A program made the position numbers and the translations under genes. Below, in pieces: positions 22,968-48,000 of a stretch of DNA of 64,000 bases. The notes beneath the pieces are model-generated. The model worked only from the letters and a program-made list of their open reading frames with translations. It made no database searches and was not told the DNA's origin. The DNA is from Ginglymostoma cirratum (Eukaryota): positions 1,476,558 to 1,540,557 of the forward strand of contig JAHRHZ010000094.1 in NCBI GenBank assembly GCA_024137785.1. Reading direction: 5' to 3'. Each line of letters opens with the position of its first letter. Position 1 is the first letter of the stretch.

Positions 22968-22978
22968 TCAGCATCTCA
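22968..22978 (-). CDS. Gene A putative last coding exon (VRC-stop in the directly spliced frame)
   Basis: aaatttcag|TGAGATGCTGAGCCTGAACACCAGACAGGAATC is homologous to gene B 53994 onward; TGA conserved at the same position in both. Confidence 0.6.
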
Positions 22979-25900
22979 CTGAAATTTGCTGCATCAAGAA
23001 ATTGAAACATTTGGTTTACATCAATGTTTCTTCTGTCTCATTTAGTACATTATTGTTTAAAAATGCTTATTGATGTCAATGTTTCCTCACAGTTAAGTTT
23101 CAAAGCCGTGGTTTAATAGAATCATGGGATTGCAAAGAACATAAAAACATTTCCATCCTCCCCTTAGCAACATTCTAACCTTGTTACAGCCTTGGTTCAA
23201 GCATGGTCAAAAGATCTGAATTCCAGAGGTGAGGTGAGAGTGACAGTCCTTGACATCAAGGCCGCATTTACCAGAGTGTGACATTAAGGAGCTCTAGCAA
23301 AACTGGAATCTATGGAAATCAGGGGCAAACTCTCTGCTGGCTGGGACATAGGAAGATGGATGTGGTTGTTGGAGGTCAGTCATCTCAGCTCCAGGACATA
23401 TCTCTGCAGGAATTCTTAAGGGTAGTGTCTTCAGCTACCTCATCAATAACCTGCTATTATAAGTCAGAAGTGGGGATGTTTGCTGATGATTGCACAATGT
23501 TCAATACCCTCCATGACTTCCCAGATACAGAAGCCCTACATGTTCAAATGCAACAAGATCTGGACAGCATGCAGACATGGACTGACAAGTGGCAAGTGAC
23601 GTTTGTGAAACATATGACTGGCAGTGACTTCTTACTGGAGATAATCTAACTACCACTGCTTGTTCTATGACTGAATCCCCCACTATCAACATCCTTGGGG
23701 TTGCCATTGACCTGAAGCTGAACAGACTCTACCAGTACAGTGGCTACAAGAGCATGTCAGAGGCTAAGAATACTGCAGTGAGTAACTCAACACCTGACTC
23801 CCCAAAACATGTCCATGATTTACAAGGCACAAATGGGGAATGTGATAGAGTACACCCCGAATAATGCTCAAGAAGCTTGACACCATTCCAAGATAAAGCC
23901 AGCCCATTTGATCGGCACCAGATCCATAAGTATCCATCACTGACACTCAGTAGTGACAGTGTGTACTATCAACAAAATGCACTGCAGAAATTCACTAAAG
24001 ATCCTCAGACTGCACCTTCTAAAGCCAGGACCACTTTCATTCAGAAGGACAAGGGCAGCAGATACACGGAAATGCCATCATCTTTAAGTTCCCCTCCAAG
24101 CCAGTCACCATCCTGACTTGGAAGTGTATAGCCGTTCCTTCACTGTCACTGGGTCAAAATCCTGGAATCCTCACCCTAAGAGCATTGTGGGTGTACTTCC
24201 AGGACATGGATTGCAGTGGTTCAAGGAGGAAGCTCACTACTGTCTGTCTTAAGCAACAAGGGACAGACAATAAAAGCTGACCCAGCCAGTGAGGCCCACA
24301 TCCTGTGAGTGATTTTTTTTAAAATTGAGACTCTTTGTTGGCTTACAATGGCTCCAAGTTAAGCAGCATTATAATTTTACAATTCTTAACCTCATTTTAA
24401 ACCTTAACATTTTCCTGCCTCTTTTCATCTCTGTAAGCTCTCGTCCAATGGCCCACTGAAATATCTACTCTCCTTGAACTCTGGCCCCTTGAGCGTCTCT
24501 GAATTTAAGTGCTTCACCATTGATAATTGTACCATCAACTGCCGGATTTCTACATGTTCGTCCATCAAGATAATCCTTAAAATCTACCTCTTTGACCAGA
24601 ATTTTGGCCGTATGCTCTCAGCAACTTTCTTTATTGACAAGCCAGTTTTATCGTCACAGCTTAATAATAATTGTGGCTTGGTGTCGTATTTTGTTTTATA
24701 TAGCATAAAGCGTTTTATGATGTTTTGTTTGTCCTAAGTATCATAAAAATAAATCTTTGACTTGGTACGAGTTCTATTGATGGATATTCATGGTAACCAG
24801 TCCTGATTCTCCAATTTCTTTTCATCCTTCAAGTTTCCTTTTAAACCTCCTCTTAACCTGTGTTCATCACTCCCATGGGGCCGTGCATTACAAATCGTCA
24901 CAAGTCTTTGCATAAAATAAATGTTCTGTTCAGGTTATTGCTGATTCTTTTGCTTATCTTAAATCTATGCCGTCTCCTAATCAATCTTTCAGCAATTGGA
25001 AACAGTTTATCATTATTTACTCTCCCAACTCTTGTGATTTTAAACAGCTCTACCAAATAACCCTTTAGTCGCCTCAGCTGTAAGGAGAACAAGATGGACG
25101 ACACCTGTACTAAATAATGGTACCATTTCATCTGTGCATCAATTGTGATTAAACCAGTCTTACCAGTGTCAGTGCTGGAGGAAAAAGTGGCTTTCTTGTA
25201 GATGATTGTAACAGCAGCAATAATTAAAAGCAAACCACTGACAGCAGCCACAATGCACAGAGGAACCATTATCCTTGGGGATCCACTGGATATCCCTGTT
25301 TTTAATACATGGAGACAACAGAACTTTATTGAGCAAGGACAGAGTTATGATCAGAATTAAACAATTTCCTGATTCAGGAACAAAATGTGAAGTTTTAGGT
25401 GGAGTGACACCTGCCAATCAAAATTTATCTTCATGACATGCTACAGAAACACAGCAGGCCTGGACAGTGTGGAGCCATTAGCAATGGTAGCATTAGTAAC
25501 CCCTTTGTTTTTGGCTCTGAGCACTCACAATTTGTTCTACAGCATAAAACGAACTTTTCCAAGCCCTTTCACTCCTGGTGAACAGTCGGATCAGACTCAA
25601 AACTTTAACTCTGCTTTTGTCTCCACAACTGTTGCTGAATCTGCCAAACCCATGCTGCAATCCACCCCCATCACACAGACATCTCCCCCTCCCATTCACA
25701 CACCTGTATACACACATTACACCACATTCTCACACACTGCTGTGGACTTTACCTAGATCCTTAGTGACAGCTCTCTGCAGTGCCTGTCCCAGGGACACAT
25801 GTTTCACTTCACACCAGTAAGTACGTTTCTTTTCCCACTCTGTTGTTGGCACGGTCAATTGGGTCACTGTTCGGTAAGTACTCGTACTGCCCAAAGCCAC

Positions 25901-28900
25901 TGCAAACTGGGTCACTCCTGTATCCACTGGGCCATTCTCATCTCTCCAAGTCACAGAAATATCAGCAGGGTAAAAGTCTGACACCAAGCAAGTCATAGTA
26001 ACGTTTTGCCCTGCAGAGGCAGCATTAGACAGAGGAGCGATCAGGTGGATCACAGGATTCTGAATGAAACCATCTACAGCAAAGACAGGAACAGATCATT
26101 AGAGAAACAAATATTTACAACTTCAGTATAGGCATCAAGTCAAATGTATTTCAGGAAAGTTGTGAAGTTTAGAGCAGTGACTATGGTTTACAGCATCAGT
26201 AACGTAATACTGCAAGCCAGGAACAGGAATGTGGAATATGAACATTGGGCTGCCTTCTAATATAGCCCCTGGTTGCTCATACATCAGGTGAATCACTTGA
26301 TGATTCATAAACAGATAAATTATAAGGGAACACTAGCCAGACTTCAATGATCTAGCTCTTTAGTGAATAATAAGCTCAGAACTCAAGGCAGAATATAGGA
26401 AGGTGGAAACCTATCTGTTCCCTTCTTGGCAGGTAGAATTGGTCGTGTTACTGACTTTCCCTAATCTATATCGTAAGCAAGGTGAACAATCATAGGCATG
26501 GCTTCCAGGATGAGAGACTATAAAACCTTTCCCTTGACCCTACTTTTGCCTCCCTGAAGATCAACGAGCAAAAAAAAGGTCTGATTCATGGATATGGTAT
26601 TGAAATCCTCCCCACTTGGTCCCAGCCTGGGTTCCACAGTAGTTTGTACTGCGGCCCTTGTTGGTGTGATTTACATTAATGATTTGGACTTAAAGGTAGG
26701 AGGTAAATTCAAGACAATCTCAGATGACATAGCATCATAAAATGAAATATTGCAGGGTGATAAGTAGTGAAGATGATAGTTGTAAACTTCAGGAGGATAT
26801 CGGTGGACTGGTCAGGTGGACAGAGAAGTTGCAAATAGAATTCAAACTGGAAAAATGAGAGTTTGGGAACTGCTACCAAGGCAAGGAATGGTGGGACCCT
26901 GTAAAGTACTGATTATCATTGATATGCATGTATAGAGACCACTGAAGATAGGAAGACATGTAGATAAGGTGGTTAAGAAAACGTATAGGATACGTGTCTT
27001 ACCTAGCCAAGGCATACAAGAGCAGGAAGGTTATGCTGCAATGAAAACAGAAGTGCTGGAGAAACTCAGCAGTTCTGGCAACATCTGTGGAAAGAGAAAC
27101 AGAGCTAATATTTAAAGTCTAAAGACTCCTCTTCAGAGCTGAAGTATCTTGTGTTTATTTGAGGTAATGTGGAAGTGTATAAAATGCTAGTTGGGCATGA
27201 CTGCAGCACTGCGCAGCTCTGGTCGCCACATTATAGGAAAGATGTGATTGTACTAGAGAGGGTGCAAAGGAGATTCACCAGGATGCTGCCTGGACTGGAG
27301 AGTCTGAGCTATGAGAAAAGATTGGGTATGCTGGGGCTGTTATCCTTGCAGCAGTGAAGCCAGAGAGGAGGCTGACAGAGGTATGTAAGGTTACGTGGGG
27401 CAGAGATAGGCTGGATAGGAAGGCACTTTTTTTGTGAGTAGTGGGGTCAATAAATGGGGTATAGATTTAAGGTGAGAGGTAGAAGACTAAAAGAGTTTTG
27501 GGGAATTATTTTCTGACAAAGGGTGACAGGAGTCTTGAAGTCACTGTCTGAAACGTTGCTTAAGTCAGATGCTTGCATAATAATTCAGCTGCATTTAGAT
27601 ATTCACTTGCACTGCCATAGCCTCCAGGGCTATCGGGCAAAAGCTGGGAAATGAGATTAATGTAGTCAGATCTTGTGTCAACCAGCATAGACATGATGGG
27701 CCGACTGGCCTCCTCTATGCCGTAATTGTCTATAAATGACCAAATGCGCTAGCTCAAGACAATTGAGCAACTCATTATGGAAGACTTACTTTAAAATAAA
27801 GTTTCGTTCATAAAATGATCCCTCATAAAAGGGTTTAAAGCTGTAAAAATAGTCCATTAGCAATTTGTATCCCTGTTGTATTAGTGTTTATTTATCTGTG
27901 GTTCTTTACTAATTTTAGTAAAACGTAGAATATGTAGCTTGTAGAGACAAGAAGTGTTGTAACTGGACAGAGGAGTAAGAGGATTTATGATTAGTTTTTC
28001 CTCTAGTCATGTTAGGAGTCTGAGGGGAAGATGATAAAAAGAGATGAAACAGATAAGGAATAGTGCCAGACAGAGCCAGGCTAGGGCAAGATAAAGCGGG
28101 CCCTGCTTGGGTGAGTAAAAGGTGTTTATCTGGATCTGGAGACATACGCTTTTTATATGAATATAGGAACATAAAATCATACAATACAGAGGGGGTCCTT
28201 TGACTCACTAAGTCTGTATGTACAAACAAGATTGGAATTTGAGTAATGACCAGTGTACTTGATAGGAAGTGTTTACAAAATGGAATTCCTTGTATTTGGC
28301 AGAATTCCGTTCTACCTAGTTTAGAATACACTGTGTGCACTTGGATGGATAATGGTAAACTCATTTTAAAAATTCCTTTGGTCAATCATTAGAAGTAACA
28401 TCAACAACAAGAATTCAATAGACATGATCTTGGTCTTCTCAGATGATATTCCATGCTTGAGGTTTTTAGAACATGACACAATTTTGAGTGGAAAAGAAGT
28501 TTTTAGCAGGAAGGAGAAATAGGAATCTAGAAGTAACTTGGCAGCATTCAAGTTAGACTTTGTGTAGTTTTAGCTCATTTAATGCCCTAGGATATATCAA
28601 GTAAACATTTAAAGACAAGCAAATTCAACATCCTTACCATTTCTTTTCCTCAAACTGTGCCTCATAGGAGATGACAATGAAACATGTTGAATTTGACAAG
28701 TGTACAAAGATCCAGATTCCCACTCATCCACAGTGACCGTTAACTCACTTCTGGAAGTATAACTCCCATTTGTGTTTAAAGTTGGTGGAAGAGTTTTTGA
28801 ACTAAAAGCAGTTTTACGGTTATTAACCAGCCAGCTAAACAAAATGCTTTTTGGATAAAATCCAACAGCCAGACACACAATTGTTGCAGTTTTCCTCACA

Positions 28901-31900
28901 TCAATCTCTTCAAAAGTTGGAGGGAACATGTAGATGGATGGCAGAATCAGGCCTAAATGAATAGAAGTGGTTATTGGTCAGAATAGTATTGTCAGAAGTC
29001 AATTCATGGCAACAGAATAATTTGCATTTAGATATCAAAGCTTCAGAACATCCCAAAGCATGTTACAACCACTGAAGACAATTACTGTTCCTTTGTTGGC
29101 AAAATGTGGCATCTAATTTACACTTAGTGAAATCCCGCAAATGGCAGTGAAATGAATGTCGAACGAAACATTAAGAAAATAAATCTTGTTTCAATCATTA
29201 TTCATATATCAAAATAATATTTTCTCTATGTTATTGTGGTATAATAATGGTTCTGGGCAAGGGAAGGTCTAGGGTCCATCTGACACAGTAATTTACAGAG
29301 TTCAAATAATTAATTTTGAATAACACTGGGTCCCATAAATTGACAAGAATCTTCCCAGATTTCTGCTTGTTTCCCACCAAGAAAAACAGTACCTTTCAGG
29401 TTGAATTGGCTGAACCAGTGAAGAACTTGAGGAACTGAAATATAAGGGAGTTATATCCTGTACCTGCTCCCATGTTGAAATTGTGAAATTCTACCGATGG
29501 TGCTGATTTAAGTAAGATCTTCAAATTTGCCAATTGGCTCACGTACATAAATGCAAGTAGGCTTGTTTTAAAAGTATGTTAAAAAAAATTACAAAAAAAA
29601 TCTCAAGGCTGTGCATTGATTAAACAATTAAGTTGGATCAGTATAACTTTAATGGTATTTTCATTTGGAAGAACACAGTCTGCTAAAATTTCTTAAATTT
29701 ATATAGACCCACTTTCCGCTCTATGAACAAAGTTTCACAAACTTAGGTCTTGTAAATTCTTCAGGTATACATTTTGCTGAAAGAAAATGAAAAATATCAT
29801 TGTGATTTTGGAAAATGATTTTAATGGAAATGCAACACAGCCTAACCAGTGCCATTCCAAACCCATGTTGAACTCAGTTTCCCACGTGTAACCAACGCAG
29901 AAACTTTACCGTCCACAGGAGCCCGATTCTCTACATATTCAGATCCATACATGAAGGGACTTGTCCCTGGGATAATCCCCCATTTCTGCTTTACCTCTAG
30001 TAAAGCAAAAGGAGTTATTGGAGATAAGTTTGGACCTGAGAGTGGATCTATGGGACAGCAGATATCTATCAGAGGTGGAACTGAGTGCAACAGTGTGAGT
30101 CGAAGCCAGAGATAAGGATGGACCTGAGAGGATGAGAGAATGAGTTTTTGGGAGACTTAATGTGTCGGCAAGGGGCAGTGGGGGGATGACTTGTGAGGAG
30201 CTGGTGAGCTTTATTTTAAGATTTAAGGTTAATTCTGTTAATTGAATAACTGGCCTAATAAATAGGGGCATGGCCAGGAACATGGAACAGTACAGCGCAG
30301 TACAGGCCCTTCGGCCCATGATGTTGTGCTGAACTTTTACCCTAAACCTAAGGTCTATCTAACCTCCACCCCTACCTTATACTATCATCCATATGCCTGT
30401 CTAATAGCTGCTTAAATGCCCCAAATGAGGTTGACTCTACTACCCTCTCCAGCAATGCATTCCATGCCCCTACCACTCTCTGAGTAAAGAACGTACCTCT
30501 GATGTCTCCCCGATGTCTAACTCCACTCACTTTAAAACTATGCCCCCTCATAATAGCTACCTCCACGCTAGGAAAATGTCTCTGGTTTTCCACTCTGTCT
30601 ATACCTCTGATCATTTTGTACACTTCTATCAAGTCACCTCTCATCCTTCGTCGTTCTAAAGAGAAAAGCCCTAGCTCTCTTAACCTTTCCTCATAAGAAC
30701 TTCCCTCCATTCCAGGCAACATCCTGGTAAAAACACATTCTAAAACATATTCTTTTACATGTGGGAATTCTACTTCCCATGTTCTGAACATAGCCATGAT
30801 GTGGAGGCGTCAGTGTTGGACTGATGTAGACAAAGTCAGAAATCACATGACACCAGGTTATAGTCCGACAGGTTTATTTGAAATTGCAACCTTTCATAGC
30901 ACTGCCCCTTCTCAGGTAACAAAGGAGCAGAACTCTGAAAGCTTGTGATTTCAAATAAGCCTGTTAGACTATAACCTGGTGCCATGTGACTTTTGATCGT
31001 GTTCTGGAATGGATTGAGAGCTGTGGAGGAGCTTGAGCAATGTTGAGAGCTATGTGCCTGCTTCCTAGGGCTGGTGAGCCGACAGCTTGAGAGAATCCAG
31101 GCACAGGTCGTTGGACAGATGTAGAAGTCTCGCTCTCTGACTAGAATTCAGTTCCAAATACTTAATTAAAAGGTAGTTACAAGAAAGTAGTGTACAAGAG
31201 ATTTTGAATAAACCTGTTAGTTTAACTTACCATCTTTACTGATCACTTTTCTGATTGGGGAAGGCAGGGTTTTGTGTGAAACAAGGCAGGTATATTGAAG
31301 ACCATGTAGCCACTGAAGTGTTGGCACTGTTAGCTCACTGATGATGGTGTAACTGTCTTCCGATTCCATCAGTATCCCGGAGTTGGAAATCCCTGAGGAG
31401 AGCTGGGTGCTGCCAATCCACCAAGACACAGAGACAGTGTCTGGGTAGAAATCACTCACCACACAGACCAGTTTGCAGTCAGCCTGCAGGGAAATTCCCT
31501 CAGGTGATGGCTGAAGGAGCCGGACGGAAGGTGGTCTCGGTGAGATGGCTGGGTTCAGAAAGTAAAGAACAGTTGGTTCAATTTCCTTCGAGTGAATCTA
31601 CAGGGTTATAGCCAATCCTTCACCGTGATTTGCTGCCATGCTTTCTAGCCACACTTTAGCACCTCCTCAACATGAAGTCCAAGTTTGCACTTGTCCGATA
31701 ACCCGGGTCACTTTCTAAACTTGTTCTTTTTTCCAATTATTTATAATGGACTTACTCAGAGATGTTATGGCACAAGTTGGATTTAGAATGCTGGCCTCCT
31801 GGTCTAGAGGTGAGGACATTGTCACTTCACCTCACCAGTCCTACAGCTTTTTGCCGTATGTTTGCAGATGTTGGTGCTGTTCACAACATGACCCAAGCCT

Positions 31901-32894
31901 GGGTCTCGGCAATTAGCTCAGCAGCAGGTATCACCCTCGGCGCTAGGTAAATTCACAGACGGGGAGAAAGCCGATTCCGCAGCCACTAACAGAAACAGAG
32001 GGGCAGTGAGCGGCTGAGTCCCCCCACTGCCAACCTCTGCTCCCTGTCTGATGGCTATTCCTGAAGGGGGGGGAGGGAGGGTGGAAGAAAACAGCTTGTT
32101 GGAGTGAACCAGTTCAGCCTCGACCCCCCACCCCCCACCCCAAGCAATGAGGCTCCTACTTGGTGGTTTGGGGGAGAGCGCCTGTTAGCCTGGGCCAGCC
32201 TGGGACAGAGGTTCCTGAATCCCTCCTGGGTTCGAACAATAACCCTGCTTCGCTCTGCACTGGTCCTACTGAGCTTTTCCAGCTTTCCCTGCCTGTGTTG
32301 CTGATCTGAGGGTGGCACCGACCTGGTTTCACGTTGAGGGTCACCGCACAGCCGCACCAGTCTTTCGCGTTCACCACAACGTCCGCACTTTGACAGTAAA
32401 ACCTCGTGGAGTCCCCGCGTTTCACCTGCTCGATGGTTAAAGTGAATTCACTGTCATTGGCGGCGGAGAAACGGGGCTGAAACGCGGCCAGCCGGGTGAA
32501 GTTAGTCGATCCCGGGCTCAGGGACATGATCCATGTGATGGTGGAGTTGCCCGCTGGCACATAGCCCCAGGTTAGCGAGTGGTCATCCGGCTGCTGGCTG
32601 CTTCTACAGCCCAGTCTCACTGTCTCACCCTCCCGAGCATCCTGTACTGCCTGCAGAATGACCAGGTTGGAGTTGGAAAGGACTCCATCTGAACAGAGAG
32701 AGAGAGAGTCAGGGAAACTTACAAAGTGCTGAGGACAGAGACAGAACACTCAAGAGAGCTCAGAAACATAGAAATCTTGCGGTGTCTCTTTCTGATTTAC
32801 ACCATCCGCAGTTCTTTCCGTTTTTAGGGAGGGACCTTAGCTCCTTACCCATCTGCAAGGCCATCAGCAGCAAAGTCCAACACAGCCCTTGCAT
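22968..32894 (-). CDS. Gene A: non-rearranging antigen-receptor-like IgSF protein, L-V-C1-C1-C1-TM-short tail (~502 aa); exons 32894-32849, 32688-32323, 31548-31231, 28952-28638, 26073-25753, 25295-25164, 22978-22968
   Basis: All introns are GT-AG and phase 1, and internal exon lengths are multiples of 3 (366, 318, 315, 321, 132). No internal stops; canonical C-W-C Ig motifs in all four domains. Each exon except the second C1 has a homolog in gene B. Confidence 0.9.
23170..24315 (+). mobile_element. Decayed CR1/L2-group LINE (RT remnant) in the last intron of gene A
   Basis: LDIKAAF and MFADD..MQQDLD..QTWTDKWQVTF RT motifs with frameshifts. Confidence 0.8.
25164..25295 (-). CDS. Gene A transmembrane exon
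   Basis: ISSGSPRIMVPLCIVAAVSGLLLIIAAVTIIYKKATFSSSTDT; hydrophobic span + KK stop-transfer; aacag| and G|gtaaga. Confidence 0.88.
25753..26073 (-). CDS. Gene A C1-set exon 3 (membrane-proximal)
   Basis: VTMTCLVSDFYPADISVTW...EWEKKRTYWCEVKHVSL; tttgctgtag| acceptor, G|gtaaag donor; 321 nt. Confidence 0.93.
26630..27735 (+). mobile_element. CR1/HER1-type LINE 3' fragment
   Basis: WSPHYRKDVIVLERVQRRFTRMLPGLESLSYEKRL (ORF 27169..27357). Confidence 0.85.
28638..28952 (-). CDS. Gene A C1-set exon 2 (no counterpart found in gene B)
   Basis: PSIYMFPPTFEEI...ATIVCLAVGFYPKSILFSW...EWESGSLYTCQIQHVSL; Ig-heavy-constant-like; 315 nt, phase 1-1. Confidence 0.93.
30280..30735 (-). mobile_element. CR1/HER1-type LINE 3' fragment
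   Basis: FTRMLPGMEGSSYEERLRELGLFSLERRRMRGDLIEVYK (ORF 30372..30797). Confidence 0.88.
31231..31548 (-). CDS. Gene A C1-set exon 1
   Basis: PRPPSVRLL...KLVCVVSDFYPDTVSVSW...YTCLVSHKTL; 318 nt, phase 1-1. Confidence 0.93.
32323..32688 (-). CDS. Gene A V-set exon with built-in J-like segment
   Basis: GETVRLGC...LTWGYVPAG..TWIM...PRFS...FTLTIEQVKRGDSTRFYCQS...DWCGCAVTLNVKP; ctgttcag| acceptor, CAG|gtcggt donor. Confidence 0.92.
32849..32894 (-). CDS. Gene A leader exon (MQGLCWTLLLMALQM)
   Basis: Hydrophobic signal peptide ending G|gtaaggag; same donor and ALQx ending as the gene B leader. Confidence 0.85.
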
Positions 32895-33339
32895 TCTCAG
32901 CTGCCTTTACCCGGCTTTGATGTGCTCGGAAGCTCAACTGACTCTGAGAGCGAGGGACTTTTCAGCTCCTTCCTCATTTCTCACAGCGCAGCAAAGAAGG
33001 GACAGGCGTGAAGGGCTTGCTCCAAATTTATCTCTTCAATTCAGCTCAAACACAACGGTCAGCCCTTCCCTGTACTGTAAACCAAAAATGCTGGAAATCG
33101 CAGCATCCGTAAAGAGAGAGAGAGCAAGCCACTCGAAACATTAGCTTGCTCTCTCTGCATGGACGCTGCCTGACCTGTTGTGATCTCCAGCTTTTGTTGT
33201 TTACAGTACAGCTTCCAGCATCTGCAGGAATTTACGCCTACATTGTGTTCTGTCCTCCCCTAGGACCCAGTTCCAGTGTACCGTCCAAACAGACTTCAGA
33301 GCAAGTGCTGCACTCTTGCTAAGTTCAAGAAAGCTCTGA

Positions 33340-34740
33340 CAAGTCCGTCTGCAAAAACCAAATTGCCTGCCCTTTTAACAGCCCACCGTGTTCCCTGGCC
33401 AACATCTCTGTCTCAGGCTTGCTGCAGTGATCCAGCGAAGCACAGCACAAGCTGGAAGAACAGCATCTCAATTTCTTCTTGGGGACCCTGCAACCTTCTG
33501 GACTCAATATCGAGTTTTCAGGCTTGAGCTCTCCCATGTCCTTTTCCCAACCCCCACAAACCAGGCTTGTTAACACAAGGTCTGCTATTACACACAACCC
33601 ATTGTTAGCCACTAACACTCCCCATTAACAGCCATCACCAGACACATATCCTCATTCGAGTTATTTATATGAATGACAAACCACAGACACACATTCCCCT
33701 CCCCTCCCTTGTCCACCTTCCACAGGGACCATTCCCCCCAGGACACCCAGGTCCACACTCCCTTCAACCCCAACACCTCCCCACAGCCCTACGGCACCTT
33801 CCCCTGTCGCTGGTGAAGGTGCAACACCTGCCCATTTACCTCCTCCCTCCCCAGTATCCAAGGGCCTAAACATACCTTCCAGGTGAAGCAACATTTCACC
33901 TGCACTTCCCAGAATCTAATCTACTGCATTCATTGCTCACGATGTGGTCTCCTCTACACTGGGGAAACGAAGCATAGACTTGGCGACCGCTTCGCAGAAC
34001 ATCTACGTTCTGCTCACAAAAAAGACCCTGAACTAGCTGTTGCCTGCCACTTCAATGCACCTCCCTGCTCCCTGGTCAACATGTCTGACTCTGGCTTGCT
34101 ACAGTGCTCCAGTGAAGCCCAACGCAAGCTGGAGGAACAACACCTCATTTTCTGCTTGGGGACTCTACAGCCCTCCGGACTCAATATTAAGTTCAATAAT
34201 TTTACGGCCTAAACTCTCCCATGTCCCAGCCCCCCACCCCACACACCAGGCCTTGTTACCACATAGCCTGCCACTATACACCCCCTGTTGTTAGTCACTA
34301 ACAGTCCCCATTAACAACTATTCAGCCTCCCAGCCCGATTGTTAGCAACTCCTTTGTCCGTCCAACTGTCTTTCTCTCTCTTTGGGCTCTATCCTATCGT
34401 TTACTCCCTACCCCACCCACCTCCCTATTTTCTGCATATAAACTGATGTATTCCCAGCCGCCAACAGTTCTGAGGAAGGGTCACCGGACCAGAATCGTTA
34501 ACTCTGTTTTATCCTTCACAGATGCTGCCAGACCTGCTGAGATTTTCCAGCAACCTTGTTTTTGTCCCCATTAATAGCTATTCACCCACCCTGCCTGATC
34601 GTTATCCACTCCTTTGTCTATCCCCACCTATTGTTCACTCCCTCACCCTATCTTCTGCATAAAAACCAATAGCTGAGTTCTCTTCACAGATGCTGCCAGA
34701 CCTGCTGAACTTTTCCAGCAACTTCTGTTTTTGTTTGTAA
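33340..34740 (+). mobile_element. Penelope-like retroelement 3' fragments (tandem), including a GIY-YIG endonuclease remnant
   Basis: ORF 33883..34212 FTCTSQNLIYCIHCSRCGLLYTGETKHRLGDRFAEH is GIY-YIG-like. There is a partial duplicate at ~33340-33650, repeated gatgctgccagacctgctga termini and a degenerate hammerhead core at 34466-34503. Confidence 0.85.
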
Positions 34741-36098: not shown

Positions 36099-37522
36099 AC
36101 CCCTAGGATGTACATATTTGATACACTCTAACCACCTGCTCTAATATTACCTCATGTGGCTGGATGTCAACATTTATTTTCTAATGTTATTGTGAAACAT
36201 TTTGAGGTGTTTTTATTATGTTATTGATACTATACATATTTAAAGTGTTCTTTTGCTAGATTGCACGCAATCTAATTAAAAATTGACTTGTACAAAATTG
36301 CAGGCTTGTAGTAGGGAAACAAACATAGGTTTTGTTAAAGCAGTTGTGATCATTCAATCATTCAAATAATTAAGGTATCAGTTTGATATCAGTTTGGCCA
36401 ATTTCTCACAGTTTCTATAATACTTAATGAACTTATTTCTGATACATACCTAATAAATGAATCCATACACTTCTAAAAGCATTGGAATAATATGGACTAC
36501 ATAAAACAGAAAACTGTACAACGATTGCAAAACATTTCCAGAATCTGACACATGTGTTCGAGAAGTAGCTTAGTACAGTGAGGTACAATTTCCGGTAATT
36601 CATCTATCACTTGTAGTTAGTGAGATGTTTTGCTAGTTTGGATAAACGTTCCTGAATTTAAAAAGAAGAATATTTGACTGCAGTATCCAATTGCTTCTTA
36701 GATTGTTCCAAAACTCTCTCAGGAACTCAGTGTTTTACTGATGGCTCCAAGTGTGGAACTTCTCAGACTAAGTCCTATGGCAGAATCTTCCTGAATGATG
36801 TGGGCAATTGTCCCATGTACCCTACAGAAACTAAACCGCAGCAGTTACTGAGCAGGAATTCTGAGCTGTTAGCTGGTGACTGCTAGCTCCCTGGCTCCTC
36901 AGGCCTGCTGAGCCCGGGCAATGGGGGCATGTCGCAGCCTCAATGCAGAATCATGGCACATCTCTGACCCACTTACTATATGGCAGTGCACTTCAGTGCT
37001 GCATTTTGGAGCACACTGGCATCTTTGGGGCCAGGCCACTGTGGGTGGGAGCAAGGTGGGGGGGTGGTGGGCACTCACCTCATGGAATAAACTAGGGAGC
37101 ATCTCAGGTCTCATCCCCCCACTCTGTTAGTGCTTCATCACTTTGTGCCTTCTATGATGCTCACAGTGTCTCTGCCTTGCCTTGCCAGTATACATTCTGT
37201 CCCCACAGTCAGAGCTTGAAGGCTCATGCCTTTCCTTTGTGAGCACACGCAAAATCAGGCAGTTCAAGTACTAGCCATGTTGCTGTTCCGTCAATCTCAC
37301 ACCCACAGATGATCATGTTCTGAAGCTTGAGGGGGGTGGTCCTTATTTAACCCCCTGTCAGGGTTTTCCAGCACAGGGCCAGTGTCCAATATCAGACCAG
37401 GGGCATGGCCATGGTCAGACACCCACTAGTGTGGTCAGTATTAGTGGGTCCATTATCACTACTGTCTGGGAAGTGGGGCACGGTTAGTCCAGAAAGTCCA
37501 GTACAACCAATCTGTGGAAAAA

Positions 37523-37906
37523 TGGAGATCAGTCAGGGATCTTCAGTGAGATCAGTCAGGGATCTTCATGGGGTTCAGTCAGAGATCTTCACGGAGATCA
37601 GTCAGGGATCTTCACGGAGATCAGTCAGGGATCTTCACGGAGATCAGTCAGAGATCTTCAGTGAGATCAGTCAGAGGTCTTCATGGAGATCAGTCAGAGA
37701 TCTTCACGGAGATCAGTCAGGGATCTTCACGGGGTTCAGTCAGAGATATTCATGGAGATCAGTCAGGGATCTTCACGGAGATCAGTCAGAGATCTTCAGT
37801 GAGATCAGTCAGAGATCTTCACGGAGATCAGTCAGGGATCTTCTGGAAGATCAGTCAGGGACCTTCATGGAGATCAGTCAGAGATCTTCACGGAGATCAG
37901 TCAGGG
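37523..37906. repeat. Minisatellite, 23-bp unit GAGATCAGTCAG(G/A)GATCTTCA(CG/GT/TG), ~16-17 copies
   Basis: Directly visible tandem array; explains the repetitive ORFs 37405..37923 and 37568..37966. Confidence 0.95.
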
Positions 37907-39035
37907 GCCTGTTCACCCATTAATTGGGGCTGTTTGCCTGAGTCAGTCAGGGTTAGGTCACTGTGAGTCATGCCCGGGGATTGAATGCAGCATGCTGGGG
38001 CGCAGAGGGGAGCAGGCAATGTGAGGATGTGATGGAGACTGTAGACCGAGGAGAGCAACAGTGGTCTTCTGAGGAGGAGGGAGGAGGACATTGAGCAGGA
38101 GGGACAGCACCTTTAGCAGGACAGAGTGATGCAGCATTGCAGGCAATGAGCCAGCAATGGGCTGCACTGCCAGTCGATGTGAGCTGGGTGCAGTCATTAC
38201 TCACTGATTGGAAGTTGTTAATGCTTGAAAGGCAGACAGACCCTGTCTGTGTGGAGGCCTGTGTTGGTTTTGGTTTTCTTGCCTTTTGCTGTTGCTGAGC
38301 ATTTATTCACCATTTGAAGGCTTTCCATTGAACAGTGAGAAGATGTGATAAGAGACTGACATTTGGGACATTTGCTGCCTTCCCAGTGTGTGCCTCGTGT
38401 TTGGTTGATCCTGGGTGGCAACGGCTTGGCTTGGAACACAACTGGGTTCCATAAATGGATCCAATGCAGGAAATTGCAGAAGGTGCTGGCAGTGGCGATA
38501 CTTCCAGCAGTGGTGAGCTGGCAGTGCCACAGGATGGGTACCATGGAGAGGTGGTACAGACACAGTGCCAAAGGTTTGATGAAGTCGAGTGAGGAAACTC
38601 GCAACAGCTGGAGGGAAACATCCCTGAAATTGATGCTGGAGCCGATTTCTGGTTCCTAGTTTCGTCGTTAGTGAGCCTTTCGCTTCCCGAACATTTACAA
38701 CAAACAAAAGTGCTGGTGAAACTCAGCAGATTTGGCAGAGCTTTATTTAGCTTTGTTTCCTCAATGACATCCCGGGAGGAAGGGAGGGGCTGGGGCTCCT
38801 TGCGAAAGCCGAGAAGCTTACATTTGAGAAGATTACACTGACCAACAGTAAACACAGCGTGACCGCAAGAACTTTTGCTCTTTCTCAGTGAGAAGTTTGG
38901 AGAATAGCATCCCCTTCGTAACCACCTCCCTTTAAGTGCTCATCAACCAAAGAGGAATTACAAAATCCATTCTTCAGCCGAACAGAACTCAATTGTGAAT
39001 CTTGAAAGCTCTTGAGCAGAGAAACCGAGCCGAAA

Positions 39036-39072
39036 ATGTTCTGCATCTTTGTTCTGACAGCCCTGCAGTTGG
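39036..39072 (+). CDS. Gene B leader exon (MFCIFVLTALQL)
   Basis: Short hydrophobic leader, G|gtaaggag donor, 91-nt intron to the V exon. Confidence 0.82.
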
Positions 39073-42000
39073 GTAAGGAGCTAATTCCTTGGTGTGGGTT
39101 TATCTTCATTCACACTGCCTCTGTTGTGGTTCACTTGGTGATTTTCTGTCTCTTCCATTTCAGATCCAGTTGTACCCCACACTTCTCTGTCGATGCCTTC
39201 GGCTACTGTCCTCAGGCAGGAGAAAGGATCAGTGACACTCGAGTGTTTCAGCTCTAATAAGAAATTCCTTATGAAGTGGGGATACGTGACTCCCGGCTCT
39301 TCAGAAACCAAGTGGCTCATGTACTGGAACCCGGGAGAAAAAACGGCGACTCGAATGCCAGGGATCGAGCCTCGTTTCTCTCAATCCAGTAGCAGCAAAT
39401 ATGGTCTAAGAATCGACGCCTTGAGACTGGAGGACTCGGCCACATATTACTGTCAGAGTGGGGAGGAAGGAGATGACTGGTGTGCCTGTGGAACCACACT
39501 GAAGGTGAAAGCAAGTAAGTGAAGGAGAATATTGAAGCAGATCAGAGCATTTACTCTGGCTGTGAAGTGGAAAAAGAAGTGTGTAACTTTCTCCCAAAAT
39601 AACTAGGAGAAATGGTATAAAGATTGTTAGAGGTGGATCCATTGACAAACATCTTATTTACAGGTAGTAATTGAGATGGTTAATATTGGTCACTGCATCA
39701 GTCTCAGTTATTTCACCTTACTGTGATAGCTGAGGTCTTCCCAACATGTTGGATGTTGTTTATAGATATTTTCCAAATCAACCTGCTCAGAGATGTTATT
39801 ATACACTGCTGGAGCAGGTGGGACATGAACCCAGGCCTCCTAGTCCAGAGGTGGAGACATTACCACTGCACCACAAGAGCCTTTGGGGGCAGTTTATATG
39901 GAACAAGGTGAATAACACAAACCTGGTGCTGACAGAACTTGAAAAAGCCAGTTTGGTTAAACTGATGTGGATGTCACACAACTCAGAAACAGACCCTTCG
40001 GTCCAACCAGTCCATGCTGACCATAATCCCAAACTAAACTAGTCCCACCTGCCTGCTCCTGGCCCATGTCCATCCAAACCTTTCCTATCTATATACTTAT
40101 CCAAATGTCTTTTAAAGGCTGTAACTGTACCCACACCCACCACTTCCTCTGGAAGTTCATTCCACATGGGAACCACTCTCTGTGTAAAAAAAATTGCCCC
40201 TCATGTCTTTTTAAAATGTCTCTCCCCTCACCTTGAAAATGTGCCCCCCCACCCCCTGTCTTGAAAACCCCCATCCTAGGGAAAAGACAACGACTGATAG
40301 ATTCTCCAGCATCTGCAGTACCTTTTATCTCTTATGACTGATAGCATTTCCCAGCTATAGATGGAGCAGGTCAGCATCTCTGGGGTAGAAGGAGACCATT
40401 CAATCTATTGTGTCTATGCCAGCACTCCAAGTGATCATTTCACTTAGTCCCGTTCCCCTACCTTGTCCAAGTGAACCTGAACGTTGCTCCTTTTCAAGTA
40501 ATTGTCTAATTCCCCTTCAACAGCCTCAGTTAAATCCTGTCTTCACCAGTGCATTCCAGGTCCTAAGCACTCACTAGGTGAGAAAAGTTTTTCCTCATGT
40601 CTTATTTTAGCAATTTACTTTAAACATGAGCCCTTTCATTCTCAAGCCTTTCATGAATGGGAACGCTTTCTCCCTATTTATTCTGTCTGACCCTCACATT
40701 ATTTTGAACAATTCAGTCAGATCTCCTGTCAGACTTCTCCTTCTTGAAGGGGAACAGTCCCAGTTTCTCCAATCTATCTCCATAACTGAAATTCCTCAGG
40801 CCTGGACCCACTCTTGTAAATCTTTGCATTCTTTCCAATGGCTTCACCATCCTTCCTGAAGTACAGCACTAGGTACTAGGCACAATGTTCCAGCTAAGCC
40901 GAGCTAAGTGTCTTGTATTAGCTCACTATGACCTCTTTGATCTTACAAGCTTTGCCCCTGTTAATAAGGTTTAGGGTATTCTAACCTGTCCTGCAATCTT
41001 TAATGACTAATGCACAGATACACTTACGTCCCTCACTCCTGCACCTACTTTAAACACGCATCTTTTATTTTGTGATTTTGTGTTCTTCTGACCAAAATGT
41101 ATGGCCTCGCCTCTCCCCACTTAACTCTGTCTGTCGTCTTTCCAGCTGCCCTGTTGAACTGCATTTGCGCAGTTTACAATGCTGCCTTGTTTTTGTATTG
41201 TTTGTATGTTTTGAAACTTGTGCCAAGGTCTAGAAAGCTAAGCTAATATTTGGAAAAACAAGGGGTGCACCACTGCCCCTCAGAGAACTGAACTGCAAAT
41301 CCTCCCCTGGAAAGCCTTCATTAATCATTACTTTCTCTTTGCTGTCTCTCGACCACCTTTGCCTCTATGTTACGGCTGCCCCTTTAATTCCACGTGTTCT
41401 AGTTTGGCTCCCACGTCTTTTGTGTGGCACTTAAATATTTTCTGGAAGTCTGTGTCAGATCAACAGCCTTTGTTACATCATCTAAAACCTCCAGTAAGTT
41501 CAATAAAAATGACTTTCCCTTATGTAACCTGTGCTGGTTCTCCTATATTGTCCACGTGACTGCTGATTACATTCTGAAATATTGCCTCAAGAAATTTCCC
41601 AACTACAGATGTTAAACTAACCAATCTGTGATTAGTTGGTCTATCTTTACACTCTGTTTTGAACAAGTGCAGAACATTTGCAATTCCTCAGTCCTCCGCC
41701 ACCATCTTTCTGTGTCCAAGGGGAAACTATTGCCAGTGTCTCTGTAATTTCTGCTCTCTCGTCCCTCATTATACTTACAGTCATAGAGTCATAGAGCTGT
41801 ACAGCTCAGAAACGGACCCTTCTGTCCAACTCGTCTATGCCGACCAGATATCCTAAATGAATCTAATCCCATTTGCCAGCATTTAGCCCATATCCCTCTA
41901 AACCTTTCCTCTTCATTTACCCATCCAGATGCCTTTTACATGTATTAATTGTAGCAGGCTCCACCACTTCATCTGGTAGCTCATTCCATACACACACCAG

Positions 42001-45000
42001 CCTCTGCATGATAAAGTTAACTCCTCAGGTCCTTTCTAAATCTTTCCCCTCTCAGCTTAAACCTATACCCCTCTAGTTTTGGATTCCTCCACCCAAGGGA
42101 AAAGACTTTGTCTATTCACCTTATCCATGCCCCTCATGATTTTAGAAACCTCTATAAAGTCACCCCTCAGCCTCCGACACCCCAGGGAAAATAGCCGCAG
42201 CCCATTTTGGATGCAACTTATGCAAAACCCTCATGGGTTATGAGGTGGGTGGGGGCGTTATGGGTTAGAATAGCGTGCATCAAGGGATGTGGCGATTGTT
42301 AGGATGTGTAGATTGGCATCGGGTACGAGGGATTATGGGGGTGAGTACAGAGGCATGGGGTATGAGCGATTATGAGGGTGAGTACAGAGACATGGGGCAT
42401 GAGGGATTTTGGGGGTAAGTACAGAGTCATGGGTGTATTTGAGGCTATAAAGGGCCATGGCGATGAGGTTACGAAGGGTTTTGAGGTGTGGATACGGGAG
42501 CGTTGGTTGGTACAGAGGGACATGGGGATGTGGGTAGGATGAAGGAGGGACAAGGGCTGGAGGCCTGTTTTTTAGTGTTCTTGCATCTGTCCCGATGAGT
42601 AAAAGTTGAGAATCTTTGACAGTTAGTCATTTTTTTCTTGTAATACTTAAGTCCTGAATGCCCAATGAATATGATAAAAATTAATTGCCTTTTCCCCTTG
42701 TAATTCCAGCCATTTTGCCAAGACCACCGTCCGTGCATCTCCATTATGTACTTCCTGAGAAAGATTTCCAGCAGACGGATAGCTCGCTGCTTTGTGTGTC
42801 AAGAGATTTTTACCCGGAGAATATATCGGTGTCTTGGTATGAGGGGGGCAGAGAGATATTCTCAGGCATCACACACTTACGTAGACTGGTGGATTCAAAT
42901 GACCGTTACACTGTGATCAGTAAATTGACAATTTCAACATCTCAGTGGCTCAGCGGTTCTCGTTACTCTTGTATTATTTCACATGAAGCCTTGCCTTCTC
43001 CACTCATCAGAACAATCAGTAAAAATGGTATGTCCATGTTTCCAGATCCTTTGTAGAACCATTATTGATTGCTGGCTTCTGATTAATTCTAACCACTTTA
43101 ACAGAACTTAGCCAGTGTGCCTACCACCACCATTGGTGTAGGGTTGTCACTGTATGTTTGAATGTTTCTTAATGCAATCTCTCAGACATCCAAAGTACAA
43201 AACGGTCCTAATTTAGATAATGTAATTTCACGCAAGTATCCAAACTTCAACAGTCTTGAAAAGGAGGAAGGATGATGGGGGTTAATACATTCCCAGAATT
43301 TAGTAGATGACCCCAACTAATCAAACTGATTGATTGAAAGTTTATCTCTTTCCAGAAATACCCTTTATCTCCTTTTGACTTTTACTCACTTGAATTACTT
43401 TTTGTGATAGCTTAAAATATTTCTCAGTTCTTTTATGCTTTTGGTTGAAAAGGTTTTGCATGACTTCCCTTCTTCATAACTTGTGTTCCCTAATAATTCT
43501 TAATGGCTCTTCAGCATCTACAACATTTGAAGTTGGTCACTGGAAAGTTGCTTTTATTTGTTCCTAATGTGTGGGTGTTACCGGGAAGGTCAATATTTGT
43601 TGCCATTTCTAGCTGTCCTTGAGATGGTAATGATGAATTGCATTTTTACATGGTTGTAGTCAATATAGTGTGGATGCAGCCACAGTGTTATAAAGAAGAG
43701 AGCTCCAGGTTTTTGACCAAGTGACAATGAAGGGATGGTGATATAGTTTCAAGTCAGGTTGGTGTGTGGTTCAGAGGGAATTGGTAGGCAGTGGTGTTCC
43801 CAAGCATCCACTGCTATTGTCCTTTTAGGGAATGTCAGTGATAGGGTTGAGGGCAAGTGGGAGTTAATGACAAAAGGATACATAATGTAAACAGCCAAAG
43901 GGAGTAGAAAATAGGATAAATAAAGATAATCTCTCCTGTTTTACACCCTATCAGACACCTTCCCTTTTGTTCCATTTCCCACACCCCACCAACTGCACTT
44001 ACTTTAAATTCATTGTACATTTCCAAAATCTCTCAAATCTGTTAAAATTCCCATCAAGCTAAACATTCACTCTATTTCTCTCTCCAAGGTGCTGCAAGAC
44101 CTGTTGAGAATCTCTAGTGTTTTATATTTTCATTTCAGAAATTGATTATCTTTTTTAGACCAATTTTGTGCATCAGGTATTCTAGGGACGAGTTCTGTAG
44201 AATCTCCATTGTGTGGCAAATACAACATAAGTTGTGTGAATTGAATTATCTCTTACTGATATACCGAGTCATACAGCACGGAGCTCTTCGGTCTAACCAG
44301 CCCATGCCAAACATAATTCCAATCTGAACTAGTCCCATATGCCTGATCTTGGCCCATGTCCCTTCAAACCTTTCTTATCCATGTACTTTTCTAAATATCT
44401 TTTAAATGTTGTAACAGTGCCCACATCTGCCATTTCCTCCAAATGTTCGCTCCACTCATGAACAACCCTCTGTGTAAAAAATTTGCCGCCATGTCTTTTT
44501 TAAATCTCTCTCCTCTCACCTTAAAAATATGACCCCTAGTCTTGAAATCGCCCACCCTAGGGAAAAGACAACAATTTTTAACCCTATCTAAACTCCACAT
44601 GATTTTATAAACCTCTATAGGATACCCTCAAGCTTCTACGCTCCATTGAGAAAAGTCCCAACCTATTCAACCCCTCCTTATAACTCAAACCCTCCATTCC
44701 GGTCAACATCTTGGTAAATCTTTTCTGAACCCTCTCCAGCTTAATAATATCCTTCCTATAACTGGGCGACCAAAACTGGACACAGTATTCCAGAAGTGAC
44801 CTCACCAATGTCCTGTACAACCTCAATGTAACCTCCCAACCCCTATATAAGTTAAAACATTAATATAGTGTTCAAACTTTAAGGTATACCTGATTAGTTA
44901 TCTATGTTAAACATTGCTTTTATCTTTTTTATTATAAAATGATTTTAAGGAACATTGGGGTCAAATGTCCATTAAAAGTCCAGTTTTGGTTATGGTTTTC

Positions 45001-48000
45001 TCAACAAAACCTGAGGAGGTTGTTTTTAGCTGTCCTGTTATATTACAAAGTGAATACATCACACAACAGACCTGGAGTTCAAAGTGAAGTGCTGTTTTCC
45101 AATTCTCAGTGAAGGAGTAAAAATGAACCAACTTATTCCACAATTCTTACCTATACCTCAAGTGAATCTCCATTTGGAAGTTATTGATAAACATTTGTTC
45201 TGAAGTTGTTATTAGTTCCAATACTTGACATTATTTCAGCTCCAATCATCAAGATCTATCTTATTAAAATACTGGACCATTGAGGTGTGGATTGAATTAC
45301 TGGAGAGCTCTTCCTCAGTCAAAAAGAGACCACTGTTGGTTTGGTTGAGTTGTGGAAATATAGACCACCGGATCATTACTGTGGTTTGTTCTTAGTGCTG
45401 AATACAACTGATATTTACCCCTTTGTACTTCACATGCTTGTCTCAAACCAGCGCCTCCCCCAGGTTGCAGTGAGCATTGCTGTGGGGAAACATGATTTGT
45501 GTTACCTTAAATATGTCAAGTAATATATTGACAGGACCATCAGATAGCTTCCCCATAATTTTAGATTTATGTATAAAATGACCAAAACATTAAGACCAAA
45601 ATAATCTTATAATTACATGACTAGCTATATGTTGATATACTCTTAAGTTATTTTATTTTTAAAATACAGCAACATTTTTATAGAGTCATACAGTCATAGA
45701 GCCATACAGCACGGAAACAGACCTTTCGGTCCAACCATACCGGCTATAATCCCAAACTAAACAAATCCCAGCTGCCTGCTCCTGGACCGTATCCCTCCAA
45801 ACCTTTCCTATTCATGTACCTATCCAAATGTCTTTTAAATGTTGTAACTGTACCCACATCAACCCCCTTCCTCAGGAAGTTCATTCCACACACAAACCAC
45901 TCTCTTCGTGGAAGGTTTGCCCCTTATGTCTTTTTAAAATTTCTCTCCTTTGTTTCAATATTTTTCATTTCAGATACTCAGCTCACATCTATGTGCTATA
46001 TAAATCTTAGAATAATATAGAGCAAGAGTTCCATGCAAAACATTTCTAATTATTTTCTCAATTAATAGTTAGGACGCTGTTGGAAGATTATTTCTTGTGT
46101 TTGAGATTAGTCTGAAATATTGACAAAAGAAATTGCTATTCTGTCAAATAGTGAAAAATGAGCTGTTAGGGATTATAACAATGTCATCTATTAGTACATT
46201 GACTTCAATTCAAGTAAATTTTAATAGCATCAGAATTACGGAGGTTTTATCATTTATCATTTGGAAGTTAGAAGTAAGAGCTGAAAAACATTTTACGGTT
46301 ACTTTTTCTCAAATCCGTACCAGTAAGTTTTCATCTTCCTCAATGTTTTATACAGAATAAGGGAAGTCAATGACTGTGTCTTGGTAAGAAGAGAATGAGC
46401 TAAAGGTCTTGCCTCTTTCCATTTTATCTCCCCTGCTTAATTTCTAATTCACCAATGAGGTTAAAACTACAAAGTCTATTTACCAGACATAGTCTAAGCT
46501 TCTGTAGTGGTGCTCACCATCTTATACTGAGTCCGCGATGGTAATCTTTAGCAGTTTATAAATCATTGAATGTTTTGCTGCTGTTAGAGTAATCAGCAGG
46601 TACCAGATTGGCGCAAAGTTTCACTTTGGAAGTACAGTTCCAAACTCCATAGTTCTATCACAGTTCTGAGTGTTTAATTGATTTTGCTGTTATAAGTTAT
46701 TGATTATATTTTACAAAGAAAATCACTGCTCTCTGCCTTCACTTAACAAATTCAAAACGTATTTGGTCAGGTGCATGTGATAAAGCATTCATTGAATCTT
46801 TGGTCTAATGATCTGTTCCTGTCTTTTCTGTAGATGGTTTCATTCAGAAGCCTGTGATCCACCTGATCGCTCCTCTGTCTGATGCTGCCTCTGCAGGGCA
46901 AAACGTTACTATGACTTGCTTGGTGTCAGACTTTTACCCTGCTGATATTTCTGTGACTTGGAGAGATGAGAATGGCCCAGTGGATACGGGAGTGACCCAG
47001 TTTGCAGTGGCTTTGGGCAGTACCAGTACTTACCGAACAGTGAGTCAGTTGACCGTGCCAACAACAGAGTGGGAGAGTAACCATACTTACTGGTGTGAAG
47101 TGAAACATGTGTCCCTGGGACAGGCACTGCAGAGAGCTGTCACTAAGGATCTGCACAACGTCTACATTGGTGAGCTGGTGTGCAGGTGCTTTGGAAGGTG
47201 CCGAGGGCTCAGTGAATGTGGTATGCATGTGGATGGGTGTTTGCAGGGGTGTACGTGGAGAGTGTGGAAGAGCGTACGTGTGGAATTGTGCTCCATGAGT
47301 CTCAGTCAGATGTGGTTTTGTGGAAGGGAGTTGTTTTTTCATCTATGGTTAGACTGTCAGTTTGGTGCTTTTGATGTGTGGGTGAGTTGCTGGGGTTATT
47401 GTGTGGTATGCAAGTGCGTACACACTGGTTTATGTTTGTGAGGGCTTACACAGTGTTTGTCAGTAACCTCTTGACACTATCCCGAAGAACATTCTGACCA
47501 TGTGCAGAGATCCATGGTTTCAGAGGTAGCATTTTTCTGAGGTGTAGACTGTTAAACCTGAAAACAAGCTGCACAGCAGAACATCCATGGCACCATTTTT
47601 GCTTTGAATTGCATTCATTTACATGCAGAAACGTTTACAAGTGAATTGTGATGGGCAGAGACCCAGTGCCAATGGATCAGCACTGAATTAAGAACTGTGC
47701 AAAGTGTGGGAAATCTGCTTCCTTATTCTGAACACCGTAGATTTCCAGCATTGACTGATTGCTCAAGGTGAGGTTAAGGTGCACATGCAGCACGCCAACC
47801 AAAGAAAAACTTATTTCTAAATAGGAATACATATTCCATTGGCAGATTCTCCCAATTCTTCAACGATGGATGTTCACTGTCTTGATTAGTGTTAACTCAC
47901 AAGTGATGTTAAACTATATTTTGTTTTGAGATCTGATTGAAAAACAATGTTATGAGTGAAATCACTGTTGGAAGGGAAGGTGAAGCAGCATTGTACAACA

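Follow-up and report, generated by a model that had tools for sequence, protein, structure and literature searches.

How can two receptor-like genes that are otherwise well diverged share one nearly identical exon, and what might keep that exon alike? The question is raised by a 64,000-nucleotide stretch of the nurse shark Ginglymostoma cirratum (C94:1476558-1540557 of its 4.36-Gb genome; hereafter the window), where two immunoglobulin (Ig)-superfamily genes, A on the minus strand and B on the plus strand, stand head to head with their start codons 6.1 kb apart. Gene A has the exon order leader-V-C1-C2-C3-transmembrane (TM)-tail and gene B leader-V-C1-C3-TM-tail; tblastn of the 264 kb examined revealed neither a C2-like exon in B nor an additional gene copy. 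Our proposal, to which we give a probability of about 0.55, is that repeated gene conversion of the C3 exon keeps one shared CH3-like dimer surface on two chains related to the shark protein UrIg2.

The C3 exon shared by genes A and B

Self-blastn of the window gives as its top non-repeat match an inverted repeat of 349 nt (25755-26103 versus 47152-46804; 96.3% identity, E 5e-163). The tract comprises one C1-set exon and 30 nt of its splice acceptor, in keeping with the first-pass annotation, which had reported a near-identical C1 exon in diverged paralogs, and it has exactly two DNA matches genome-wide. The exons of A and B differ at 12 positions in the first 318 nt and at the final two bases, and at 6 of 106 residues, the same replacements that had been listed earlier (N/K, N/D, T/S, and KKR/SNH). 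Protein identity reaches 94% in C3, compared with 36% in V (36.2%), 50% in the first C1 (49.5%), and 56% in TM; the V and C1 values agree with the ~35% and ~50% estimated before. C3 alone is near-identical at the synonymous level, with a dS (synonymous substitutions per synonymous site) of 0.079 against 1.08 for V, 0.79 for C1, and 0.46 for TM, and with 53 of its 56 four-fold sites alike (V, 8/20; C1, 16/27; TM, 12/14). The identity continues about 30 nt into the upstream intron, as had also been noted: 29 of 30 acceptor bases are the same in both genes, while the acceptors of V (16/30), C1 (14/30), and TM (16/30) agree at just 14 to 16.

The edges of the sharing are less sharp than first described. 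The tract does stop at the end of the A exon (25755/47152), but gene B has no GT there, and its first strong in-phase donor is predicted 15 nt further on (predicted exon 46834-47169). Within 47153-47169 the donor used by A is lost in B, and the next in-phase donor, again a prediction, adds the five residues HNVYI; catshark B isoforms imply an A-like C3 donor. Nor is the sharing strictly limited to one exon. The second tract reported in the TM exons was found again (36/39 nt), and the leader donor and the tail exon (37/42 nt) also contain short tracts; in the latter, 20 of 22 nt behind the B stop codon match A coding sequence. The introns of A and B no longer align. A mosaic of tract ages within C3 was considered and dropped: the clustering of differences toward the 3' side (9/12 in 60 nt, p 0.0008) vanishes after adjacent changes are merged (5/8, p 0.13).

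The near-identity could in principle be an artifact of assembly or polishing that merged two more different exons. Near-identical repeats do collapse, and the S. torazame A model (P0009) lacks C3, a gap that might have this cause. We consider such an artifact extremely unlikely. Four public sequencing runs were aligned to gene A at 85% likeness (the sites quoted are those listed), and where the first-pass annotation had feared a collapse, the independent reads hold both exon versions. The runs that a sequencing-run search listed as containing the stretch included none recorded as RNA. Raw poly(A) RNA reads (X24) and contigs (X1) carry A and B letters at the differing sites; at 25826, for example, 3 of 8 reads are B-type. 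DNA contigs of a related species (X7 and X10), with ~4% intron divergence (40 in 1009 and 111 in 2703), show the A and the B letter together at 6 of the 10 sites listed, the other 4 having the B letter alone. The genome of the window holds just the two copies. Since both letters occur at 6 of 10 sites in the relative, at least half of the A/B differences would be older than that species split, and homogenization of C3 would have been incomplete since then. Every alternative letter listed in the exon is the B letter. X1 contains exon-sized pieces that agree, without differences, with the boundaries predicted for V, C1, and C2; one record joins V and C1, and another of 1105 nt ends in B-type C3, so both genes are transcribed. 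Contigs can merge copies, and nothing here relies on the long-range phase of variants.

Per-domain trees were built from one isoform per gene (P0002 and P0008), with P0004-P0007 and P0010 excluded. Protein-homologue searches returned five clusters, and a profile search of representatives, dominated by the tail of P0010, which is repeat-like and unrelated, contributed just the V domain of P0014; rays, chimaera, bony fish, and PRARP lay beyond the reach of these searches. The A homologues come from C. punctatum (CpuA, P0001) and S. torazame (StoA, P0009; partial, without C3), and the B homologues from S. canicula (ScaB), S. torazame (StoB), M. asterias (MasB), and, for V only, R. typus (P0014). 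The V domain of B is 90% identical to the Rhincodon protein, and the homologues place the window among sharks. As predicted for conversion, V and C1 cluster by gene, and C3 joins window A with window B (support 90/93). A clade of window A and B was rejected for V (p value of the approximately unbiased test [p-AU], 9e-5) and for C1 (p-AU 2e-6). Residues unique to the window pair number 6 in C3, 1 in V, 1 in C1, and 3 in TM, against 0, 26, 31, and 5, respectively, unique to the A copies. Window A is 94% identical to window B in C3 and 80% to CpuA. Furthermore, the cross-gene C3 distance between CpuA and ScaB (0.29) is near the orthologue distance between window B and ScaB (0.25), in contrast to C1 (0.97 versus 0.50), which points to an older homogenization as well. 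Five of the six C3 residue differences are derived in A, which has at least 5 replacements of its own since the last event.

Purifying selection alone, acting without DNA exchange, would fit the slow evolution of C3 and a by-gene tree that is rejected only at p 0.04-0.065. It is contradicted by the identity at four-fold sites and in the intron, and by window A being nearer to window B than to its own orthologue, and we regard it as very improbable. A fixed inversion between the inverted C3 copies was also rejected: A-type V-C1-C2 pairs with A-type TM (window, CpuA, and StoA), A-type genes have the long tail (window and StoA), and B-type V-C1 goes with the short tail (window, StoB, and MasB).

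Exon-limited gene conversion between inverted copies, the explanation put forward in the first-pass annotation, thus accounts for the synonymous and intronic identity, the per-domain trees, and the independent reads together, and on this sequence evidence it very probably explains the C3 identity. The inverted copies, ~21 kb apart, would pair and convert where homology survives; with introns that have ceased to align, conversion would be confined to exons. The process was probably recurrent: C3 would have been homogenized on at least two occasions, one no later than the split of carpet sharks from ground sharks and another following the branching of Chiloscyllium.

Two further patterns were seen in the same alignments. 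The SNH variant had been described as adding an N-glycosylation sequon (NHT) only in B. The sequon is indeed present only in B, but it is not a gain there: N82 is ancestral (N in CpuA, ScaB, StoB, and MasB), and A lost the sequon. The site (25824-25832) is missing in A by different changes, KRT in the window and NHP in C. punctatum, and is kept in all four B copies, as NCT in the three ground-shark ones. Separately, the V domain of S. torazame A (P0009) is 64-66% identical to ground-shark B V and 54% to carpet-shark A V, possibly reflecting partial V conversion in catsharks or fast evolution of A in carpet sharks.

Relation to the UrIg family

The top PDB match of C. punctatum A (P0001) is nurse shark UrIg2 (9dmx; E 2e-77), aligned in one stretch, 28-453, with V-C1-C2-C3 domain for domain. 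The same structure comes first for P0003 (E 3e-73), is the best single-domain PDB match of the B V domain (E 7e-14), and contains, in its own C3, the strongest domain match shown for the shared C3 (E 2e-16). Judged by these matches, A and B are in all probability related to the non-rearranging shark UrIg family, and the homogenized exon is a homologue of UrIg2 C3. In both genes VJ lies in one exon according to the gene models, and an exon-sized V piece of gene A is spliced to C1 in an X1 contig; the G-strand CxC is present in 8/8 A/B V domains; and, allowing 1+2 mismatches to the consensus, no heptamer-12/23-nonamer was detected near either V (within ~300-400 nt). Expression in liver and gill, not in lymphocytes, would be expected of the UrIg family; for A and B, transcription as such was seen. 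The greater closeness to UrIg and UrIg2 than to rearranging Ig and T-cell receptors (TCR), position by position, is judged from PDB and own-genome matches.

The likeness to UrIg2 (PMC12227049) extends to the single-exon VJ, the split leader, the colinear V-C1-C2-C3, the G-strand CxC, the TM exon, the WGYV and YWNPG motifs, and gene conversion of C exons. UrIg2 is, however, one gene with nine C domains in an antigen-receptor complex, which homogenizes its own C2/C3 repeats by conversion, whereas here C3 is converted between two genes that have 3 and 2 C domains; A also differs by its ITIM-like (immunoreceptor tyrosine-based inhibitory motif) tail. UrIg2 V domains are 50-60% identical across species, and domain loss has been reported for UrIg2 in batoids (PMC12227049). 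We rejected orthology with UrIg2 on three grounds: the number of C domains, nine or more in shark UrIg2; a V identity of ~40% to nurse shark UrIg2 (counted by eye) compared with 57-59% to catshark B; and the location of the two in S. canicula, with UrIg2 on scaffold NW_024055500.1 and B on a 244-Mb contig.

UrIg itself is secreted as V-C1-C2-C3 and encoded in class III of the major histocompatibility complex (MHC) (PMC12227049 and PMC10751288). Gene A has the same four-domain ectodomain, and its C2 glycan site falls in the same loop region as in the gene that is probably the UrIg of this genome. That gene, on contig C5 (344228-352341), is a compact secreted V-C1-C2-C3 gene with a single G-strand cysteine in V, a stop at the end of C3, and an RGS-domain exon ~55 kb off. 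Its V is 34-37% identical to the V domains of A and B, and its domains are the best non-self matches of V, C1, and C2 in the genome; for C3, it is narrowly outscored by a light-chain-like C exon on C168 (5e-14 versus 3e-13). Orthology of A/B with UrIg was rejected, as UrIg lacks TM and its V is ~80% identical across species, whereas A and B have TM exons, V domains 54-68% identical between shark families, and Matrin-3-family and P450 genes as neighbors. Protein searches of this assembly, in which the best candidates are scored, turned up no UrIg2-like locus whose C2/C3 exons are repeated, and UrIg2 may be missing from the assembly.

Two other families were compared. The SIRP family (V-C1-C1-TM) has the domain count of B, and the top ESM feature match of P0003 is a SIRP-named cluster (0.96), a feature-level lead; SIRP was rejected, UrIg2 being the best PDB match by 20 orders of magnitude with no SIRP among the best 60 of 343. 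The PRARP pair is described as two membrane proteins, non-rearranging and of VJ(-C1) type, that carry tyrosine motifs and join through disulfide bonds into homo- and heterodimers. PRARP is listed among the MHC VJ genes (PMC10751288), unlike A and B between their Matrin-3-family and CYP26-like neighbors, a separation made by description, not sequence. No PRARP sequence appeared among the results of any sequence search made, and orthology to PRARP could make A and B known genes in other vertebrates.

The terms "UrIg3" and "ITIM" have 0 occurrences in the text of PMC12227049 that was consulted, and three accession numbers looked for in its two text supplements (figure images being outside that scope) were not present. 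We found no published third UrIg locus, tyrosine-tailed UrIg relative, or C3-confined inter-gene conversion; Fu 2019, Ohta 2019, Dornburg 2022, and Flajnik 2023 lay outside the scope of that search, so that a prior description is possible.

The predicted dimer surface and possible reasons for keeping it

UrIg2 forms a disulfide-linked dimer with two G-strand V-V bonds, almost no C2 contact, and a CH3-like C3 pair (PMC12227049). The domain missing from B, C2, is exactly the non-contacting one. In a complex model, C3(A) with C3(B) scored 0.70, against 0.03 for the best of 3 controls; runs agreed in at least 93% of contacts, and the partner pLDDT (predicted local distance difference test) was at least 87. 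The mark thus reached is attained by 51/78 solved and 2/108 mismatched pairs among microbial proteins and by 71/105 and 2/126 among eukaryotic ones; the pass may stem from likeness to solved CH3/UrIg2 dimers, and AB is not separable in it from AA or BB. All 6 residues that differ between A and B lie outside the 23 modeled interface positions. Formation of an A-B heterodimer is plausible.

The A tail carries SFYENI (SVYQNV in S. torazame A, P0009), an ITIM-like motif. In gene B the acceptor lies 10 nt deeper in the same ancestral tail exon, and translation stops after three residues; the B copies of S. torazame and Mustelus are short-tailed as well (GGL-stop/GRL-stop), and the B TM helix contains no K, R, D, or E. 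P0007 (S. torazame B isoform X3) is annotated without the TM exon and would yield a secreted V-C1-C3 form. Each chain is predicted to dimerize via C3-C3 contacts and V-V disulfides, as UrIg2 does, and a common C3 would permit AA, BB, and AB dimers. AB dimers would couple the different V of B to the tyrosine-motif tail of A, or else the signal of A would be diluted by B. That selection favors mixed dimers is, in our judgment, close to an even bet.

Paired activating/inhibitory receptors were considered as a model for the locus and rejected: their ligand-binding domains are expected to be near-identical, while here V is 36% identical with a dS of 1.08, and their short-tailed partner is expected to have a charged TM residue or an ITAM, while the short-tailed B lacks a charged TM residue. 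The closest parallel of this type is SIGLEC11/SIGLEC16 (PMC5701461), also head-to-head Ig-superfamily paralogs a few kilobases apart, with unlike tails and with part of the ectodomain converted lineage by lineage. There, however, the distal ligand-binding V-set exon is converted, whereas here it is the membrane-proximal dimer domain, with V diverged; the absence of a charged TM residue in B sets A/B apart from that pair as well.

Several results weigh against a conserved dimer surface kept by repeated conversion. No species besides that of the window yielded both C3 copies in the homologue searches, the C3 rows being CpuA and three B copies. The by-gene C3 clade is rejected only at the borderline (p-AU 0.038, 0.045, and 0.065 over three settings), the TM tree clusters by gene (68/73), and the TM-exon tract is weakly significant (permutation p about 0.03; AU p 0.26). 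Of the domains, C3 also changes least between orthologues (79-80% identity, compared with 65-68% for C1 and 57-59% for V), which alone favors ongoing conversion. The chance that six differences would all miss the interface is 0.22 (0.37 counted as 4 events). The first-pass annotation had suggested that the exon is retained as a symmetric CH3-CH3-like surface; the likeness is directly supported by the homology to a domain that forms a CH3-like dimer in the UrIg2 crystal (PMC12227049), but the reason for retention fares worse, the interface being no more conserved than the rest (9/23 versus 30/83 variable positions, p 0.81). Finally, with four Ig domains in A and three in B, the V domains of an AB dimer anchored at C3 would be offset from each other, unless C2 loops out.

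Some of these points would fit conversion that is real but unselected, in which C3, the slowest domain to evolve, retained enough identity for ectopic recombination between the inverted copies and is overwritten again and again, V and C1 having escaped; A and B would then work as separate homodimers. The conservation of C3 among orthologues, the lack of interface-specific conservation, the short shared tracts in noncoding sequence, and the replacements that A has accumulated since the last event all agree with this view, as does the conversion by UrIg2 of its own C2/C3 repeats (PMC12227049). It is a strong rival, although we hold it less likely than a shared dimer surface kept by selection. 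The first C1 exons lie closer together than the C3 exons (11.5 kb versus 20.7 kb), yet they are unconverted (dS 0.79); the sole fully homogenized exon encodes the domain that pairs CH3-like in UrIg2; and homogenization seems recurrent over a long span. Alternatively, a shared partner on the outer face of C3, such as an Fc-receptor-like, matrix, or signaling protein, would keep both copies alike. UrIg2 C2-C3 is Fc-like (PMC12227049), and B, without a signaling tail or charged TM residue, would need a partner; none is known, however, and the residues that differ between A and B, the glycan site included, are on the non-interface side. A partner of this kind is improbable, and a dimer surface held in common by both chains is the reading that we prefer.

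The locus and its place in the family

Genes A and B (exons in Table 1) occupy a third locus, flanked by a Matrin-3-family gene on one side and a CYP26-like gene on the other. The former, on the upstream flank, runs from L007:9170 to window position 10331 (plus strand) and has an RRM matching Matrin-3 and RBM20, plus a U1 zinc finger; the ESM atlas contained no usable match for the upstream gene. The latter, on the other flank (L014-L016, minus strand), is a P450 gene with a CYP120 match, which we take to be CYP26-like from that match and from its motifs. The neighborhood would presumably point to the paralogon with human IGK and CD8.

Table 1. Positions of the exons and tract elements of genes A and B in the window
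Feature	Position	Strand	Basis or remark
Gene A leader exon, split leader, phase 1	32849..32894	-	ATG...G/GTAAGG; 46 nt
Gene A single-exon VJ domain, G-strand WCGCA (CxC)	32323..32688	-	Pfam V-set; exon-sized contig piece spliced to C1 piece, run X1
Gene A C1 (UrIg-type C1)	31231..31548	-	Pfam C1-set; colinear with UrIg2 C1 via orthologue P0001
Gene A C2, no B counterpart; NGS sequon in DE-loop region	28638..28952	-	
Gene A C3, homogenized exon, 321 nt	25753..26073	-	Self-blastn, gene model
Gene A C3 splice-acceptor stretch within converted tract; 29/30 nt as in B	26074..26103	-	
Gene A TM exon; 3' portion matches B at 36/39 nt	25164..25295	-	
Gene A cytoplasmic exon; SFYENI (22930-22947), ITIM-like/YxN motif	22840..22988	-	Predicted 3' end
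Gene B leader exon, 37 nt, phase 1	39036..39072	+	Rhincodon leader and V, P0014
Gene B single-exon VJ domain, WCACG (CxC)	39164..39514	+	
Gene B C1	42710..43027	+	
Gene B C3 splice-acceptor stretch within converted tract	46804..46833	+	
Gene B C3, homogenized exon; tract end 47152, predicted donor 47170	46834..47169	+	
Gene B TM exon, helix without charged residue	50998..51132	+	
Gene B tail exon: G-R-H-stop, then untranslated stretch matching A coding tail (20/22 nt)	53994..54026	+	

A tandem repeat array lies between the two start codons (37522-37910), and repeats resembling short and long interspersed elements (SINE/LINE) are spread across 30-64 kb. Within gene A, the GC content at third codon positions (GC3) is 0.34 in C2 (28638-28952) and 0.70 in V (32323-32688). 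Two long open frames on the plus strand have no Pfam match: L004:2504-3559 (352 aa) and L019:8249 into L020 (>584 aa), the second being serine/asparagine-rich with repeated RRHTL-like words.

Gene conversion between Ig-superfamily paralogs is well known, and the process here is ordinary; what stands out is the genes and the domain involved. The pattern is the reverse of that in paired receptors and offers a case in which the upkeep of a protein-protein interface by conversion can be tested. UrIg and UrIg2 are at present the candidate relatives of the gene that the RAG transposon entered, in a published model of two paralogues tied to the MHC and an antigen-receptor complex (PMC12227049). A third locus with two additional members, both membrane-bound and one of them bearing an inhibitory-type tail, would alter this map and give the family a possible signaling role. 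More tentatively, and at odds we would put well below even, this third shark UrIg locus, which lies in neither the MHC nor the antigen-receptor complex, might encode a germline two-chain receptor, with two different unrearranged V domains, one signaling tail, and a dimer domain whose compatibility is maintained by inter-gene conversion rather than by co-evolution. If true, the locus would offer a living model of how a homodimeric UrIg precursor gave way to heterodimeric receptors of the Ig/TCR type.

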